The position numbers and the translations under genes are program-made. Below, one piece after another: positions 13,400 through 19,663 of a DNA stretch of 64,000 nt. Origin of the DNA: Candidatus Yanofskybacteria bacterium RIFCSPLOWO2_02_FULL_41_13 (GTDB lineage: Bacteria > Patescibacteriota > Minisyncoccia > 2-02-FULL-40-12 > GWA2-44-9); the NCBI GenBank assembly GCA_001795735.1, contig MGKQ01000020.1, forward strand, positions 52,050 through 116,049, in the 5' to 3' direction. The notes under the pieces were generated by a model. The model searched no databases. It was not told the origin of the DNA and saw only the letters and a list, made by a program, of their open reading frames with translations. The first letter of the stretch is position 1; every line of letters begins with the position of its first letter.

Positions 13400-15316
13400 A
13401 TGGAAAAACCAGGTTTTCTCAAAGAAAAATACAATTTACACAATACTCCCGAAGTAGATTCGGCCGCGAAAAGAACCGAAGCCAAGACCAAAGAAAAAGT
13501 CTCTCAGAAGCCAGAGGCCAGAATCCAGAACTATCTTGACCGATTAAAGCATCTTGCCCTTGATCCGGATAAAAAGCAGAAAAGAGAGATGTTTGGATAT
13601 GAACCGCGACCGCGTGCTTTATCACTGCTTCGAGAAATGGTTATGAATAAATATGTGCGTCCAAACAAAGAAAAAATGGCCGAAGGGGCGGCAAGAGTCG
13701 AAGAACGTGCGGCAAGAGAGTTGGGTATCGAAGCTCATTATGGAGAACAAGAGCTCGAACAACGCGGAGAAATCGCCGTCGAAGATTTGGAAAAATCATT
13801 GGATGAATGGATAAAATACCTATCCGATGCCAATGAGCCATATCCTATTTGGTTCAGATATTATGTTTTTCGAAATATTCTAGATCTTGGGGACTATGAT
13901 AAGGATAAAGGCGAATTTACTAAACGTTCTGAGGGGACAATCCGTCTTTTTCCAGAAGTAGACCGCGGAGCTCTTGGTTATGTTCAGGAAAGGATGGAGG
14001 CTTCTAAAGATCTCGAAGCGCTGGAACGTCTACTAAAAGCTCAAAAGACAATTGATACTCCCCAAGACCAGCTTATAACCAAAGAAAAGGCGGTTAGTTT
14101 TGCTAAGCTCTCTTTTGCTAAACAATATGCGGAAGGCATAAAACAAGCTGGAGAAATAACTTCGGAGATGCGGGAAGAAAAAGGGGGCAAGTGGGTAAAA
14201 TATCAGAAAGGGACGGATCCTACGGCATTGTGGGCATCTCTCCAGAACAAGGGTACCGCCTGGTGTACTAAAGGATTTGCTACAGCAGAAACTCAACTCA
14301 AGAGCGGTGATTTTTATGTCTATTATACCAACGATAAACAAGGCAAACCAACAATTCCACGCATAGCCATCAGAATGCAGGAAGATAGTATCGGAGAGGT
14401 CCGTGGAGTAGCGGACAATGATCAGAATCTCGAAGGAAATATGGCCGATATTGCTGAAAAAAAGATGGCTGAACTGCCGGGAGCAGAAAGATACCGCAAG
14501 GCTTCAGCGGATATGAAAACTCTGACTGCTATTGATAAAAAAGTAAGAAGTGGTCAAGAGCTCAAAAAGGACGACCTGATCTTCCTATATGAAATCAATT
14601 CATCCATCGAAGGCTTTGGCTATCAGAGAGATCCGCGTATTGAAGAATTAAGATCAAAAAGAAATTCTAAAGAAGACGCCCCTATAGTTTTGGATTGTAA
14701 ACCAGAAGAGATTGCCCACTCAACAGGCGATGTGGATGATAATACCAAGGCTTATATCGGCAAACTTCCGCTAGGCATTTTTGATACTAGTAATCGCAGG
14801 ATATTACCTGAAGGTGTTGAGCATATTTACACCTCATTTCCGGAAGGCAAGATCAGGAAAATGGAGGTCTTTATAGGTGGAAAATCTAAAGAAGAACTCA
14901 AAAAAGAATTGGCCATGAAGAATATTAAAGTCACTTCCTATGCCACGAGCGTGATGGATGGCAATAATTTTACCATTAAGGAAAGTTCTGAAAAACTCGA
15001 ATTGGTAAGATTAACCGTCAAAGACCTTGGTTTTTCCAATAGTGCTACGACACAGGAAATATTTGATAAAGCTAAAACTCTAGGCTTAGATCTTTGTCCG
15101 GCAGAAGTCGGACCCAACCTGAGACTTCAATATGAAAACCAGCCGCTAGGCGAATGGGTTTATGTTGCCATGAAACCAATTACCGATTCTGGCGGCAATC
15201 CGCGCGTCTTCAACTTGGTTCGCGACGTAGACGGTCTGTGGTTGCACGGCTATTGGGCCAATCCGGATAGCAGGTGGCGTCCCGGCAGTGAGTTTGTTTT
15301 CTGCCTTCGCAAGTGA
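13400..15316 (+). CDS. DGR variable (target) protein, function unknown; C-terminal VR encoded at ~15179-15315
   Basis: The last ~45 codons are repeated (with A-specific differences) in the TR downstream. C-terminus ends FVFCLRK, compatible with a CLec/FGE-type VR scaffold. Confidence 0.8.
   Translation: MEKPGFLKEKYNLHNTPEVDSAAKRTEAKTKEKVSQKPEARIQNYLDRLKHLALDPDKKQKREMFGYEPRPRALSLLREMVMNKYVRPNKEKMAEGAARVEERAARELGIEAHYGEQELEQRGEIAVEDLEKSLDEWIKYLSDANEPYPIWFRYYVFRNILDLGDYDKDKGEFTKRSEGTIRLFPEVDRGALGYVQERMEASKDLEALERLLKAQKTIDTPQDQLITKEKAVSFAKLSFAKQYAEGIKQAGEITSEMREEKGGKWVKYQKGTDPTALWASLQNKGTAWCTKGFATAETQLKSGDFYVYYTNDKQGKPTIPRIAIRMQEDSIGEVRGVADNDQNLEGNMADIAEKKMAELPGAERYRKASADMKTLTAIDKKVRSGQELKKDDLIFLYEINSSIEGFGYQRDPRIEELRSKRNSKEDAPIVLDCKPEEIAHSTGDVDDNTKAYIGKLPLGIFDTSNRRILPEGVEHIYTSFPEGKIRKMEVFIGGKSKEELKKELAMKNIKVTSYATSVMDGNNFTIKESSEKLELVRLTVKDLGFSNSATTQEIFDKAKTLGLDLCPAEVGPNLRLQYENQPLGEWVYVAMKPITDSGGNPRVFNLVRDVDGLWLHGYWANPDSRWRPGSEFVFCLRK
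15179..15315 (+). repeat. DGR variable region (VR)
   Basis: 137-nt match to TR with 18 mismatches, all at TR adenine positions. Confidence 0.85.
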
Positions 15317-15605
15317 TTTTTTGATTCTTTAAATCTTTCAGAAATTTTAATTTTTTGTTTCTTTTGAAACTTTGATATAATTATTTTGGTTTGGTTAATC
15401 GGACGGCCACGGCTTTCCGAAACCATTCTAACGGATACGAGTTGAGAGCGTAGACGGTCAAGGCTTTCTGCGGAGGATTTGTATCATGTTATACAAAAAG
15501 AAAACACTTGGTGTACCATGCTGGCGGAGTCTTGCTCCCAAATAATATACAGCCCCAGCCTCTTATAAAGATTCGGCGGGCAGTGGTAATGATGGCATGG
15601 TGCAC

Positions 15606-15742
15606 ATAACCGATTCTAGCGGCAATCCGAACGTCTTCAACTTGGAACGCAACGAAGACGGTCTGTGGTTGAACGACAATTGGGCCAATCCGGATAACAG
15701 GTGGAATCCCGACAATGAGTTTGTTTTCTGCCTTCGAAAGTA
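15606..15742 (+). repeat. DGR template repeat (TR), non-coding, AAC-rich
   Basis: Base-by-base alignment with VR: every difference is TR A to VR C/G/T. Track ORF 15597..15878 here is spurious. Confidence 0.85.
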
Positions 15743-15756
15743 TCTTCTTTTCCGCA

Positions 15757-16080
15757 TTACAAGGTGCGGTTTTTCTTTTCAGGATTCTCCAGGCTTTTCT
15801 TCCAGCCACCCAACATTTTTCCAATTTCTTCCAACTTCAAAGCGATATCCCCACATTGTTTGTTTGAGATTAGCTTAGCCTCCCAAGCCACAGAAATAAG
15901 AAATTTAAGAGTGTCAGTAATCAATATACAGCCTGAAATCTTTTCCGATTTTTTATCTTTTTCGGTAAAGTAAGCTTTGTGAGAAAGTTCAAGAAGATCT
16001 ATAAATTTATTTTCAATTCGTGCACCTAATGTGTAGCGTGCACCCTTAGTAATATGCGGAACAATATTCATCCAAACCAA
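15757..16080 (-). CDS. avd: Avd-like accessory variability determinant (four-helix-bundle protein)
   Basis: 107 aa helical protein. C-terminal EEIGKMLGGW resembles the Avd/TIGR02436 ILGSWI region. Lies between TR and RT but on the opposite strand. Confidence 0.6.
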   Translation of the reverse strand: MVWMNIVPHITKGARYTLGARIENKFIDLLELSHKAYFTEKDKKSEKISGCILITDTLKFLISVAWEAKLISNKQCGDIALKLEEIGKMLGGWKKSLENPEKKNRTL

Positions 16081-16105
16081 ATATCCCTCTTTGATTCGAT
16101 TCAGG

Positions 16106-17131
16106 ATGGAGGCACCATTGGAAGGCTGGGGGGGGGGCTTTAAAGGTGTTCATAATACATATTATGATATCATCTCTGTCCAAAATTTGCTTGTCGCATG
16201 GCAAGAATTTCTAAAAGGAAAACGTAAACGTCGGGATGTTGAGAGGTTCTCGGTTAACCTACTAGATAATATCCTAAAGTTAAATAGAGAATTGGCAGAT
16301 AAAACATACAGACATGGGGCATATCATGCGTTTAGAATAAATGATCCAAGGCCTCGCAATATCCATAAAGCTAGTGTTCGTGATCGACTTTTGCACCATG
16401 CGATTTACAGAATTTTATACCCATACTTTGATCCAAAATTTATTTTCGATTCTTTTTCTTGCCGTCGAGTAAAGGGTACACACCGGGCAATAAATAGGTT
16501 CCATAAATACTGCCGAAAGGTTTCACATAATCACACTCGAACAGTTTGGGTTTTGAAATGTGATATTAAAAAGTTTTTCGAGAATATTAACCACGGTATT
16601 TTAATGGGTATTTTGAAACGATATATTCAGGACGACGATGTCGTATGGTTGTTGGGCGGGGTTATGGATAGTTTCCATTCAAAAAGTAAACACGGCACGG
16701 GACTACCTTTAGGCAACTTGACTAGCCAATTACTAGTTAATATCTACATGAACGAATTTGACCATTTTGTAAAACGTGAGCTGGGGACACTACATTATAT
16801 TCGTTATGCCGATGATTTTATAATTATCCATGAGAGTAGAAGATATTTAGAAAACCTATTACCTAGTATCTCTATATTTTTAGAAAAACAGTTAAAGCTT
16901 CAACTCCATCCGGATAAGGTATTTATTAAAACCCTCTACTCTGGTGTCGATTTTCTTGGCTGGGTTCATTTTTCAACACATAGAGTGTTAAGAACTACGA
17001 CGAAACACAGGATGTTTAGAAACATTCAAGATAACCGCGGGAACGACAACGCCATTCAGTCTTATCTCGGTCTGATCAGTCATGGTAACGCAAGGGGCTT
17101 AGGGCGAAAGATAGAAGAATTATTGTTGTGA
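16106..17131 (+). CDS. DGR reverse transcriptase
   Basis: LPLGNLTSQ (DGR-specific) motif, YADDF catalytic motif, N-terminal LLVAWQEFLKGKRKRR. First ATG is 16106 (track TTG 16091); alternative TTG at ~16184. Confidence 0.9.
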   Translation: MEAPLEGWGGGFKGVHNTYYDIISVQNLLVAWQEFLKGKRKRRDVERFSVNLLDNILKLNRELADKTYRHGAYHAFRINDPRPRNIHKASVRDRLLHHAIYRILYPYFDPKFIFDSFSCRRVKGTHRAINRFHKYCRKVSHNHTRTVWVLKCDIKKFFENINHGILMGILKRYIQDDDVVWLLGGVMDSFHSKSKHGTGLPLGNLTSQLLVNIYMNEFDHFVKRELGTLHYIRYADDFIIIHESRRYLENLLPSISIFLEKQLKLQLHPDKVFIKTLYSGVDFLGWVHFSTHRVLRTTTKHRMFRNIQDNRGNDNAIQSYLGLISHGNARGLGRKIEELLL

Positions 17132-17331: not shown

Positions 17332-18099
17332 ATGCCCGAATTTAGTCTTACGATAACAATCTCTGCTTTTATTGCCGGAGTGCTGACATTCTTTGCGCCA
17401 TGTACCTTGCCGTTAATCCCGGCCTTCTTAGGTATCATCTCCGGTTCTAGTACAGATGAACTTCGTGATCCGAATAAATTAAAAATGATACGTGGCAGGA
17501 TTTTTAGGAATGCAATCTTTTATGTTCTTGGCTTCTCTTTAATTTTTATATTATTCGGAGTCTCGTTTACTTTTGTCAGCCAAGTTCTTGGGCTAAGAGA
17601 ATGGATTCAAGGAATCGGAGGAGTTCTAATAATTATTTTCGGGTTAGTTATTATGGGTTGGTTAAGACTTCCTTTTTTAAATCAAGAGAAGCAGGTCAGA
17701 GTCCCTCAATTATTTCAAAAAGCATCTTTTTTAAATTCCTTTTTGTTGGGCGCCTTATTTGCCATCGGCTGGTCTCCCTGTGTTGGGCCACTTCTTGGTT
17801 CGGTACTTCTTCTGGCTTCAACTTCAGGCACTATTTTGGAGGGCACTTTTCTACTTGTGGTTTTTGCGATCGGACTGGGAATACCATTTTTGGTAACCGC
17901 TTTATTGATAGGCAAAGCCTTTACGGCTTTTGGAAGATGGGGGAATGTCCTCTCGGTGATAAATAAAATTGCGGGGATATTTTTGATATTTCTGGGATTT
18001 TTACTGACAATCGGCTGGTTCAGCGCTTTTCACAATAAATTGATATTTTATTTCTACCAATTACCCTATTTCGAGGTGTTTATCAATAGGTTCCTATAA
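17332..18099 (+). CDS. ccdA: cytochrome c-type biogenesis/thiol-disulfide transporter CcdA (DsbD family)
   Basis: FFAPCTLPLIPAF and second conserved Cys in a TM region (SPCVGPLLG). Confidence 0.8.
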   Translation: MPEFSLTITISAFIAGVLTFFAPCTLPLIPAFLGIISGSSTDELRDPNKLKMIRGRIFRNAIFYVLGFSLIFILFGVSFTFVSQVLGLREWIQGIGGVLIIIFGLVIMGWLRLPFLNQEKQVRVPQLFQKASFLNSFLLGALFAIGWSPCVGPLLGSVLLLASTSGTILEGTFLLVVFAIGLGIPFLVTALLIGKAFTAFGRWGNVLSVINKIAGIFLIFLGFLLTIGWFSAFHNKLIFYFYQLPYFEVFINRFL

Positions 18100-18100
18100 A

Positions 18101-18856
18101 ATGAGAAATTATCTAAAAAAGCACAAACGTCACATTAGATTACTACTTCTTACTCTCGCTGGTTCGTGTGGGGTTTTAGTTTTGTCTGTCCTGTGGGACT
18201 TTGGAATTATAAATTTACCGCCGTCTCTAGTTTATTATATGAAGTTTGCTTCGAGCGGGGTTCATTCTCTTCCGGCGGCTGACGTTGTGCTACCTCTTAA
18301 GTTCCACCGCCAGGAGCATTCTTTAAGCTGTGAAGCGGCAACGCTAAAAATGGTTCTTGATTATCATGGTATAGATGTTTCCGAATCAGAGGTCATAAGC
18401 AAAATTCCAGTTGACGCTACTGTGCGATCTGGTGATGTTTGGGGAGATCCACATGTCGGCTTCGTCGGTAATGTAGATGGTAAAATGATGATTGACGGCT
18501 ATGGTGTTTATTGGGAGCCGATTGCTGTTGTGGCCAGCGAATGGAAAAAAACTGGCATAATAAAAAATGGCTCAGTCTCCGACTTAGTCGGCCATATCTC
18601 GGAAGGCCGGCCGATTATTATTTGGGGTTATCTCGGCAGGGGCAGGCCGGTGAGCTGGAAGACTCCGGATGGGGAGACGGTTAGAGCCGTTAACGGGGAG
18701 CATACGAGAGTGGTCTATGGGTATAAAGGATCGGCCGAAAAACCGGAGGGATTTTTTGTTATGGATCCGATATACGGCCCGGCTTTTTGGGAAACATCAG
18801 AACTTCTTCGCAACTGGGATGCATTCGAACGGATGGGGGTTGTGGTCTATCCTTAG
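18101..18856 (+). CDS. C39-like cysteine peptidase domain protein (Peptidase_C39_2-like), secreted/membrane-anchored
   Basis: signal anchor, SCEAATLKMVLDYHG motif around the putative catalytic Cys. Confidence 0.55.
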   Translation: MRNYLKKHKRHIRLLLLTLAGSCGVLVLSVLWDFGIINLPPSLVYYMKFASSGVHSLPAADVVLPLKFHRQEHSLSCEAATLKMVLDYHGIDVSESEVISKIPVDATVRSGDVWGDPHVGFVGNVDGKMMIDGYGVYWEPIAVVASEWKKTGIIKNGSVSDLVGHISEGRPIIIWGYLGRGRPVSWKTPDGETVRAVNGEHTRVVYGYKGSAEKPEGFFVMDPIYGPAFWETSELLRNWDAFERMGVVVYP

Positions 18857-18910: not shown

Positions 18911-19663
18911 ATGCTAGTGAGAAAAATCATTATAAATATAGTCATATTTGTGGCCGTGCTCGTTGTGGGAGCATTTTTTGTTTTTTATAAAAATGAGCCA
19001 AATGTAATTAAGGAACCGATACCTTCTCCGCAGGTTTTTCAATCTGTCAGTCCTTCTGTTTCCCCATCCCCAATTCTAAATTCTAAATTTGAAATTCCAG
19101 ATTCGATCAATTTGGCCGTCCCATTTACCTCTCAGGCACCGACTAAGAATTGGGGTTTGCCGTTCGCTGAATTTTGCGAAGAGGCGTCGGCTCTTATGGC
19201 CGCCAGTTATATAAACGGCTGGTCTATACCGACTTCTGAATTTGCCGAGGGAAAAATGTTGGAGATAAAAGATTTTGAAGAAAAAAGATTCGGTTACTAT
19301 AAAGATACGACTGCCGAAGAAACGGCAATTATTTTAAGAGAATTTTATAAAATAGAAAAAGTTAAAGTGGTATATGATCCGACAGCTGAAGATATTAAAA
19401 AAGCTTTAGCCGACAAAAAAGTTATAGTTATTCCCGCCGCGGGTCGTCAGCTAGGCAATCCTTATTTCCAATCACCCGGCCCGATTTATCATATGTTAAT
19501 TATCAAGGGTTATACCAAAGAGGGGAATTTTATAACTAATGATCCCGGTACTCGCCGAGGCGCTGACTTTATTTATTCTCCCGGTGTTCTTATGAATGCC
19601 ATCCATGATTGGAATGGCGGAGATGTCGACAACGGCAAAAAGGTTATGATCGTTGTCGGGTAA
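18911..19663 (+). CDS. C39-like peptidase domain protein (paralogue-like of previous gene)
   Basis: signal anchor, Ser/Pro linker, FTSQAP...CEEASALMAASYING motif. Confidence 0.5.
   Translation: MLVRKIIINIVIFVAVLVVGAFFVFYKNEPNVIKEPIPSPQVFQSVSPSVSPSPILNSKFEIPDSINLAVPFTSQAPTKNWGLPFAEFCEEASALMAASYINGWSIPTSEFAEGKMLEIKDFEEKRFGYYKDTTAEETAIILREFYKIEKVKVVYDPTAEDIKKALADKKVIVIPAAGRQLGNPYFQSPGPIYHMLIIKGYTKEGNFITNDPGTRRGADFIYSPGVLMNAIHDWNGGDVDNGKKVMIVVG

Follow-up and report, generated by a model that had tools for sequence, protein, structure and literature searches.

A diversity-generating retroelement of the candidate phyla radiation with antisense avd and a putative primer module upstream of its template repeat

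We analysed a diversity-generating retroelement (DGR) in a 64-kb stretch of contig MGKQ01000020.1 from Candidatus Yanofskybacteria bacterium RIFCSPLOWO2_02_FULL_41_13, hereafter called the window, in which a preliminary description had pointed to an avd-like gene lying antisense between the template repeat (TR) and the reverse transcriptase (RT) gene. With a probability of roughly 0.7, this is an ordinary DGR of the candidate phyla radiation (CPR, Patescibacteria) with the published gene architecture B3, which works as separate transcription units and carries its primer module upstream of TR. Such units would take the place of a single avd-TR-RT operon, and roles that in the Bordetella phage DGR belong to the accessory RNA Sp, downstream of TR, would here be taken by RNA upstream of TR. 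The TR RNA would be a self-contained non-coding RNA (ncRNA) of about 390 nucleotides (nt), while avd and RT would be expressed divergently from a short region that holds a length-variable G or GA tract.

The locus is a complete DGR cassette, in which the following features were delimited, including the variable repeat (VR) and its end resembling the site at which mutagenic homing is initiated (IMH):

13400-15316, plus strand: target gene, 638 aa, from the list of open reading frames (ORFs), carrying VR at its C-terminal end
15181-15315, plus strand: VR, in ungapped alignment to TR at an offset of 427
15310-15317, plus strand: IMH-like 3' end of VR (CAAGTGAT), the final Lys codon and stop
15606-15742, plus strand: TR, with homology to VR from about 15606 and an aligned part at 15608-15742
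15757-16080, minus strand: avd (accessory variability determinant), between TR and RT and antisense to both
16091-17131, plus strand: DGR reverse transcriptase ORF (RVT_1, E 1.5e-24)

Over the 135 nt in which VR (15181-15315) and TR (15608-15742) align without gaps, all 18 of the 18 mismatches fall on A in TR, and 16 A-to-N sites lie within 15608-15715. A 21-nt block identical to VR follows (15716-15736), and an IMH*-like end begins at 15737. This boundary, at which an identical block gives way to systematic TR/VR differences that are not of the A-to-N kind, is common to the relatives. VR ends at the target stop codon (15314-15316), and the measured gap to TR is about 290 nt, as originally described. 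Further VR copies were sought throughout the 64 kb and none was found, so that a single VR matches TR. The RT carries YADD and LGNLTSQ, the latter an instance of the LGxxxSQ motif typical of DGR RTs; its close relatives all sit in cassettes that bear TR and VR, and NCBIfam returned sub-threshold matches to other RT families only. The target product had no match in Pfam and NCBIfam searches, and an identical 638-aa product is called in other assemblies of the locus.

The minus-strand ORF was recognised by the Pfam family bAvd (PF22296; E 1.8e-12, 48.1 bits, above the cut-off of 40 bits), which identifies the helical-bundle ORF of the preliminary description as a true Avd, antisense to both TR and RT. 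It comprises 107 aa from TTG 16080 or 104 aa from ATG 16071, and the divergent gap between avd and RT is 10 nt (TTG 16080/TTG 16091) or 34 nt (ATG 16071/ATG 16106). The two genes are thus indeed divergent with almost no promoter space, and this gap of 10-34 nt contains only weak and ambiguous sigma-70-type promoter candidates for avd and RT.

A scan of one genome per species with the window RT gave 80 loci (the genome set), and a second scan of contigs, seeded with a distant member of the family, gave 80 further loci (the metagenome set). The 80 best RT relatives share 58-72% identity and come nearly all from metagenome-assembled genomes (MAGs) of Patescibacteria/CPR, and the same locus as in the window was found in groundwater metagenome assemblies. 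A minus-strand Avd homologue abuts RT in 73 of the 73 genome loci with sufficient upstream sequence (E down to 1e-57). The metagenome loci gave 67 Avd matches, all 67 on the minus strand; 13 loci of this set had no Avd match, 12 of them being without upstream sequence. Across the 161 loci taken together, every one of the 143 ORFs matched by the Avd profile is on the minus strand. In at least 97 loci (at least 53 in the first set), TR has the orientation of RT and is directly followed by the avd stop codon, and the spacer between VR and TR measures 239-399 nt in 42 loci, for which the 290 nt of the window are typical.

This arrangement corresponds to architecture B3 of Wu et al. (2018, PMC5758913), written TR-(avd)-RT with the reverse strand in parentheses and reported for 90% of CPR DGRs. 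The window has the order TR, avd, RT, with avd on the reverse strand, a single upstream target, no other accessory gene, and relatives from CPR and groundwater, and its gene layout is identical to B3. The layout that had been flagged as atypical is therefore the documented, standard layout of CPR DGRs, of which the locus is one more member; the comparison with CPR cassettes proposed at that time gave 143 antisense matches among 143 Avd matches. Wu et al. (2018, PMC5758913) also pointed out that some DGRs need at least two transcription units, and did not discuss promoters, RNA structure or the sequences flanking TR. Variants of this layout occur among the relatives: VR lies downstream of RT on the opposite strand in L002, L005, L008, L013, L024 and L027, and upstream on the opposite strand in L011 and L012, and L064 has two VRs.

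The region around TR contains a set of conserved RNA features, which are given here together with the promoter-like motif that precedes them:

15373-15381, plus strand: conserved extended -10 promoter-like element (TGATATAAT), a putative promoter
15399-15605, plus strand: structured 5' element of the TR RNA, about 200 nt with five helices, P1, P2, P4, P5 and P6 (RNAalifold)
15399-15420, plus strand: P1, hairpin in the 5' element
15449-15472, plus strand: P2, hairpin in the 5' element
15495-15510, plus strand: A-rich motif M (AAAAAGAAAACACUUG), the proposed primer strand, directly 5' of P4
15511-15522 paired with 15594-15605, plus strand: P4, a 12-bp helix whose 3' strand abuts the first base of TR
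15526-15538, plus strand: P5, helix in the 5' element
15548-15555 paired with 15578-15585, plus strand: P6, helix in the 5' element
15738-15751, plus strand: TR 3' flank and U-rich linker, pairing with M (RNAduplex and permutation test)
15752-15779, plus strand: terminator-like hairpin CCGCATTACAAGGTGCGG (15752-15769) with the U-run TTTTTCTTTT, overlapping the avd stop codon

The 5' element was derived from an alignment of the spacer between VR and TR in 51 loci, for which RNAalifold gave 38 pairs. In this structure, 94% of the cells held standard pairs compared with 40-49% in slid controls, the covariation score was 0.70 compared with 0.13-0.19 in slid controls and was reached by none of 500 shuffles, and compensatory double changes were present in 32 of the 38 pairs. 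The single-stranded parts contain the invariant motifs AAAAAGAAA-ACUUGG, AUAAAAUACAGC and CAGUGG..GAUGG. R1, a covariance model of the 3' domain of the element, matched the window at 15488-15609 (105.5 bits, E 8e-17) and nowhere else in the 64 kb. It gave one match per locus, always on the RT strand, in 67 genome loci and the window and in 55 of the 80 metagenome loci, all of the latter outside the set from which the model was built. When R1 was checked on 51 independent loci, 97.6% of the cells were paired compared with 31-56% in slid controls, and 16 of 18 pairs showed double changes. Rfam, searched with gathering and E-value thresholds, returned no family for the 5' element or elsewhere in the region. 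The loops of P1 (15403-15416, ACGGYYACGGCUUU) and P2 (15455-15467, CGGUCAAGGCUU) are conserved and nearly identical, and this duplicated motif could be a repeated protein-binding site; we know of no counterpart in the Bordetella RNA.

We then compared M with the sequences at the two repeat ends. The duplex between M and the TR flank of its own locus had a mean energy of -6.15 kcal/mol, compared with -4.46±0.24 kcal/mol when the partners were permuted across loci (z=-7.1, 0/20000 as good). Within subgroups, the corresponding values were z=-5.9 and, in the less diverse group that resembles the window, z=-1.9. Pairing of M with the U-tail after the hairpin was considered as a further candidate and was rejected, as it gave z=-1.6 compared with -7.1 for the segment before the hairpin. 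At the boundary itself, TR of the relatives reads CGAAAC, CGAAAG or CGCAAC, and VR always reads CGCAAG(T), the last Lys codon and stop. In the window, the reverse complement of M, CAAGTGTT, equals VR at 7/8 positions and TR (AAAGTATC) at 5/8. The counts by boundary position, in 56 loci anchored independently of M, were as follows:

Boundary position 4: reverse complement of M equal to VR in 55/56 loci, equal to TR in 17/56
Boundary position 6: equal to VR in 36/56, equal to TR in 8/56
Boundary position 7: equal to VR in 20/56, equal to TR in 46/56
Boundary position 8: equal to VR in 13/56, equal to TR in 45/56

Where TR and VR differ, M thus follows VR at positions 1-6 (at position 4, 39 loci for VR and 1 for TR) and TR at positions 7-8 (33-34 for TR and 2-7 for VR). 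When M was permuted among loci, 0/10000 arrangements gave M-VR complementarity as good as that observed. The M-VR pair at position 4 is C-G in most loci, G-C in 5 and U-A in 1.

From these complementarities, M seems to be the primer strand of a primer module located upstream of TR, with priming predicted at G15510. M would pair with the TR 3' flank and run directly into the P4 strand, so that a template:primer duplex and a stop duplex would enclose a looped-out TR; along the RNA, the primer would come first, then the structured domain and then the template. Since the last 5-6 nt of M complement VR, a product composed of 5'-M...UACUUG and the attached complementary DNA (cDNA) would be an exact antisense copy of VR through the VR end. 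Complementarity to the IMH-like end of VR is a property known from the Bordetella RNA primer, which is proposed to guide the cDNA to VR. Covariation across more than 50 natural elements favours the idea that the primer, not TR, reads this end. At 15737 compared with 15310, and at the same site in about 30 relatives, TR has CGA and VR has CGC, both Arg codons, the VR base always being C and never A, G or T. The C at 15310 fits a base set by pairing with the primer G rather than by copying of TR.

The best-studied counterpart is the DGR of Bordetella phage BPP-1 (Handa et al. 2018), whose RNA comprises the 3' end of avd, TR and Sp. There, cDNA synthesis is cis-primed from A56 of Sp, downstream of TR, and cryo-electron microscopy shows Sp 53-56 paired with TR 118-121, while Sp 59-70 forms a duplex, the 'cPRT Stop', with the sequence just upstream of TR, so that a looped-out TR is enclosed by two neighbouring duplexes (Handa et al., bioRxiv 10.1101/2023.10.23.563531). 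In the BPP-1 sequence, we found that the reverse complement of Sp 48-56 equals VR 118-126 at 9/9 positions and TR 118-126 at 6/9, the mismatches lying at the IMH/IMH* differences. We had considered complementarity between primer and VR end as a new feature and dropped this claim, as Naorem et al. (2017) had described it earlier in Bordetella and connected it with the directionality of IMH. The relocated primer module gains independent support from this comparison, because M, although upstream, bears the known primer signature of DGRs.

Several further likenesses to BPP-1 were found. TR is looped out in BPP-1, and would be here, between template:primer and stop duplexes to which a single unbroken RNA strand contributes. 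In both systems, TR is directly followed by a hairpin, templating starts, or is predicted to start, at the final G of a GC-rich block that TR and VR share, and the primer RNA complements IMH (VR) better than IMH* (TR). In contrast, the primer and stop strand and the RT-binding RNA are 3' of TR in BPP-1 but would be 5' of TR here; avd of BPP-1 is co-directional and upstream, whereas it is antisense and downstream here, where the RNA appears to end at the hairpin; and the proposed priming nucleotide is G instead of A. No sequence or structure similarity between the TR RNA and the BPP-1 RNA was detected, and R1 had no match in BPP-1. By analogy, the TR RNA may work like the Bordetella RNA while being arranged differently.

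The predicted linear order recalls retron ncRNAs, which are ordered a1, branching G, msr, msd, a2: their 5' strand pairs 3' of the template, and the priming G and an RT-binding domain come before the template. The order is the same in the two RNAs, but the likeness is topological only and should be taken as a lead rather than a result. The retron cDNA, multicopy single-stranded DNA (msDNA), is neither adenine-mutagenised nor homed to a target gene, and retrons use a separate RT lineage and have no Avd.

The two ends of the proposed TR RNA were assigned from conserved motifs. Upstream, a TGnTAnnnT sequence at a fixed distance from M (-115 to -127 nt) is present in 28 of 48 relatives compared with a background of 8.7%, and a -10-like hexamer occupies the promoter-like site in 40 of 48; transcription would begin from this extended -10 near 15388. 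Downstream, the hairpin with its U-run is the sole terminator-like site within 15200-16400, and 124 of 131 relatives have a hairpin with a T-run, whose stems vary in sequence (CCGCG, CUCUCC, CCCCGC and others) yet stay complementary. In 117 of the 124 loci, the hairpin contains the avd stop codon or is covered by the avd coding sequence. Because the T-run is conserved as DNA and the final ~10 Avd residues are unconserved at the protein level in the homologue comparison, the constraint at the 3' end of avd acts on the nucleic acid. The hairpin and U-run, overlapping the 3' end of the convergent avd, would thus be the terminator-like 3' end of the TR RNA, which looks like a promoter-to-terminator unit free of antisense avd.

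A canonical-style operon is the main competitor of such a unit. TR and RT would then be co-transcribed on an RNA that carries antisense avd, an equivalent of Sp would lie downstream of TR, and avd would be expressed despite transcriptional collision. This would agree with the position of TR and RT on the same strand, 350 nt apart, with the location of the Bordetella accessory RNA entirely downstream of TR, and with the finding of Handa et al. that many DGRs, those of CPR included, have downstream stem-loops and duplexes between upstream and downstream sequences, in a survey that ranged over 40 nt upstream and 100 nt downstream of TR. However, in 31 loci RNAalifold detected no conserved pair anywhere along the plus strand opposite avd, and no Sp-like structure was found there. 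A conserved hairpin and U-run also follow TR in 124 of 131 loci, the sequence with the primer signature, complementary to the TR flank as well as to the end of VR, is upstream of TR, and RT has its own conserved promoter-like motifs and tract. We regard the operon as unlikely. The preliminary description had offered either a TR-RT transcript with antisense avd or an internal TTG start of RT; this dilemma appears to fall away because TR has its own conserved extended -10 and its own hairpin and U-run, and a TR-RT co-transcript is not needed.

Several points nevertheless weigh against separate units with an upstream primer. The promoter and terminator were assigned by consensus, and promoters of the phylum are poorly known. 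Handa et al. proposed that hairpins just downstream of TR are Avd-binding stem-loops; the present hairpin is possibly the counterpart of these, and if it were only that, the RNA could continue past it. The M-VR covariation at position 4, counted by locus, amounts to few independent changes, and in the subgroup to which the window belongs M and the TR flank covary weakly (z=-1.9, p=0.035). Finally, the proposed priming nucleotide G15510 would stand opposite A15737 of TR, as a G·A mismatch.

The second part of the cassette concerns the start of RT and the tract in front of it, for which the following positions are relevant:

16091, plus strand: TTG, the start of the RT ORF and first start candidate
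16106, plus strand: ATG, second start candidate, in frame only with G10
16128-16137, plus strand: length-variable poly-G tract, here G10, at the RT 5' end
16187, plus strand: TTG, third start candidate, chosen by gene callers

In each of the 11 recorded contigs of the locus, gene callers place the RT start at TTG 16187, giving 314 aa, and the 346-aa product was looked up in the sequence records and is absent from them. If this internal start were correct, about 100 nt of promoter space would be available and the poly-G tract would be irrelevant to the protein. In addition, the commonest allele, G11, leaves no in-frame start before the conserved His codon. Against this, the 12 residues upstream of TTG 16187 (H-x-Y/F-x-D/N-I-I-S-x-E-N-L) are conserved in 127 relatives. 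The Ser of this motif is encoded by TCN codons in 97 cases and AGY codons in 18, and because it is kept via both codon types, which is the mark of protein-level selection, the motif is translated. An in-frame ATG stands just upstream of it in 38 of 70 relatives. A start at TTG 16187, the other branch of the earlier alternative, is in our view quite unlikely, and this codon usage indicates that translation of RT must begin upstream of it.

Among 11 assemblies that encode an identical 314-aa RT, nine contigs have a G11 tract, one, which stands for three further similar contigs, has G9, and G10 was seen in the window only. With G10, ATG 16106 is in frame; with G11, the frame from the upstream stop to the conserved His codon holds no table-11 start codon; and with G9, only CTG, ATT or a distant ATG is available. 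Likewise, L147 has G9 where L148 and L149 have G10, the RT DNA being 100% identical. A tract is present at the 5' end of RT in 118 of 127 relatives (93%), as poly-G of 6-14 nt in 91 and as (GA)4-21 in 27, at a distance of 20-70 nt upstream of the conserved N-terminal motif. In many relatives, a -10-like TAGAAT or TAAAAT directly follows the tract and is itself followed by ATG. Upstream of the tract, TGG(C/T)AAAAT in the poly-G group and TTCAAAATCGAGGC in the GA group form a motif that could serve either strand.

One contig with the identical 314-aa RT, L083, differs in this region: its intergenic sequence between avd and RT (L083:1394-1500) reads CTCAAAATCGAGGCATTGCTGG, where the window has TTCAGGATGGAGGCACCATTGG at 16081-16127. 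L083 is without the ATG at 16106, and its intergenic sequence resembles the consensus of other species, a sign that the control region between the divergent genes is hypervariable or has recombined locally.

From its position and its effect on the reading frame, the tract looks like a contingency-type switch on RT, homopolymer sequencing or assembly error being the alternative explanation for the length differences. Known contingency loci include the (TA)n repeats in the divergent promoters of hifA/hifB in H. influenzae and the poly-G/poly-C tracts of Neisseria. The present tract resembles them in being a homopolymer or dinucleotide repeat that stands at a gene's 5' end or promoter, flanked by divergent genes, variable in length and frame-changing; unlike in them, a switch of expression is here a prediction from tract lengths and reading frames. 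To our knowledge, a phase-variable switch on a DGR RT has not been described.

Two further explanations concern the identity of the parts. The element of about 200 nt between VR and TR might lie outside the DGR RNA, as the 3' untranslated region or terminator of the target gene or as an independent regulatory RNA, since it directly follows the target gene in most loci and no Rfam family explains its identity. It stays with TR and not with the target, however, in B3 variants with a convergent downstream or an inverted upstream target, in which VR has another location or the opposite strand (L002, L005, L008, L011, L012, L013, L024 and L027). In addition, its last helix ends exactly at the start of TR, and M covaries with both the TR flank and the VR end, which makes an origin outside the DGR RNA highly improbable.

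That the minus-strand ORF is not a functional avd (but spurious, a pseudogene or an assembly inversion, in an element without avd or with a damaged plus-strand copy) can be practically dismissed: the match to NCBIfam DivGenRetAVD (NF033474; E 7.6e-15, 55 bits) is below the equivalog cut-off of 80 bits, the single-sequence AlphaFold model, for a family whose fold is a four-helix bundle forming a pentameric barrel, is all-helical with low confidence (predicted local distance difference test score 60), and neither Avd by itself nor a profile of 37 sequences had a significant sequence match in the PDB, but the bAvd match exceeds the Pfam gathering score, homologues of up to 78% identity share its position and strand in 140 of 141 independently assembled loci, no Avd match lies on the plus strand, and eleven independent assemblies of the locus agree. 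A plus-strand avd disrupted by a frameshift, which had been suggested as a check, is ruled out by the absence of plus-strand profile matches and by the ORFs themselves, as neither the plus-strand ORFs between TR and RT nor the other minus-strand ORFs over TR had any Pfam match.

The surroundings of the cassette were also inspected. Downstream, a DsbD-like membrane protein is encoded at 17332-18099, and 18101-18856 and 18911-19663 each encode a peptidase-C39-like protein, with domains taken from precomputed Pfam matches on identical contigs. No phage-like gene adjoins the cassette, and a search of the window for tRNA and tmRNA genes found none. Among the RT relatives, L124, L144 and L164 have at least 760 nt of upstream sequence and no R1 match, L124 also being without an Avd match; these may be variant or degraded cassettes. 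The contigs of L002, L003, L005, L027, L030 and L080 are labelled as Gammaproteobacteria, Bdellovibrionales, Chlamydiota or Bacteroidota in automated MAG submissions, which probably reflects mis-binning or mislabelling of CPR-type cassette contigs rather than horizontal spread.

Taken together, these parts suggest a more comprehensive but tentative picture, to which we give slightly less than even odds. The RNA machinery of B3 elements (primer strand, stop duplex and protein-binding domain) would have moved upstream into a retron-like ncRNA of about 390 nt; avd could sit antisense between TR and RT because TR belongs to this self-contained ncRNA; the primer, not TR, would read the IMH end of VR and set the direction of homing; and RT would be gated by the hypermutable poly-G/(GA)n tract. 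A limited check of the searchable literature found no description of the 5' element, the upstream primer position or the RT tract, and the element may already have been described.

The gene layout being known, the interest of this locus lies in what an antisense avd implies. DGR reverse transcription is known from a single element, the Bordetella phage DGR, in which the accessory RNA is downstream of TR, an arrangement closed to CPR DGRs, although these rank with the most numerous in nature. For them, the comparative data provide a testable RNA at about 15388-15780, with a predicted primer strand, priming nucleotide, stop helix and 3' end. They also lend support from natural variation to the idea of a cDNA-linked RNA primer that recognises IMH, which concerns the way in which cDNA reaches VR and not TR; if the model holds, retargeting such a DGR would call for a change in an RNA guide of 5-6 nt as well as in TR. 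Furthermore, the length-variable tract of RT suggests stochastic switching of the mutator, in which case hypermutation would itself be phase-variable.

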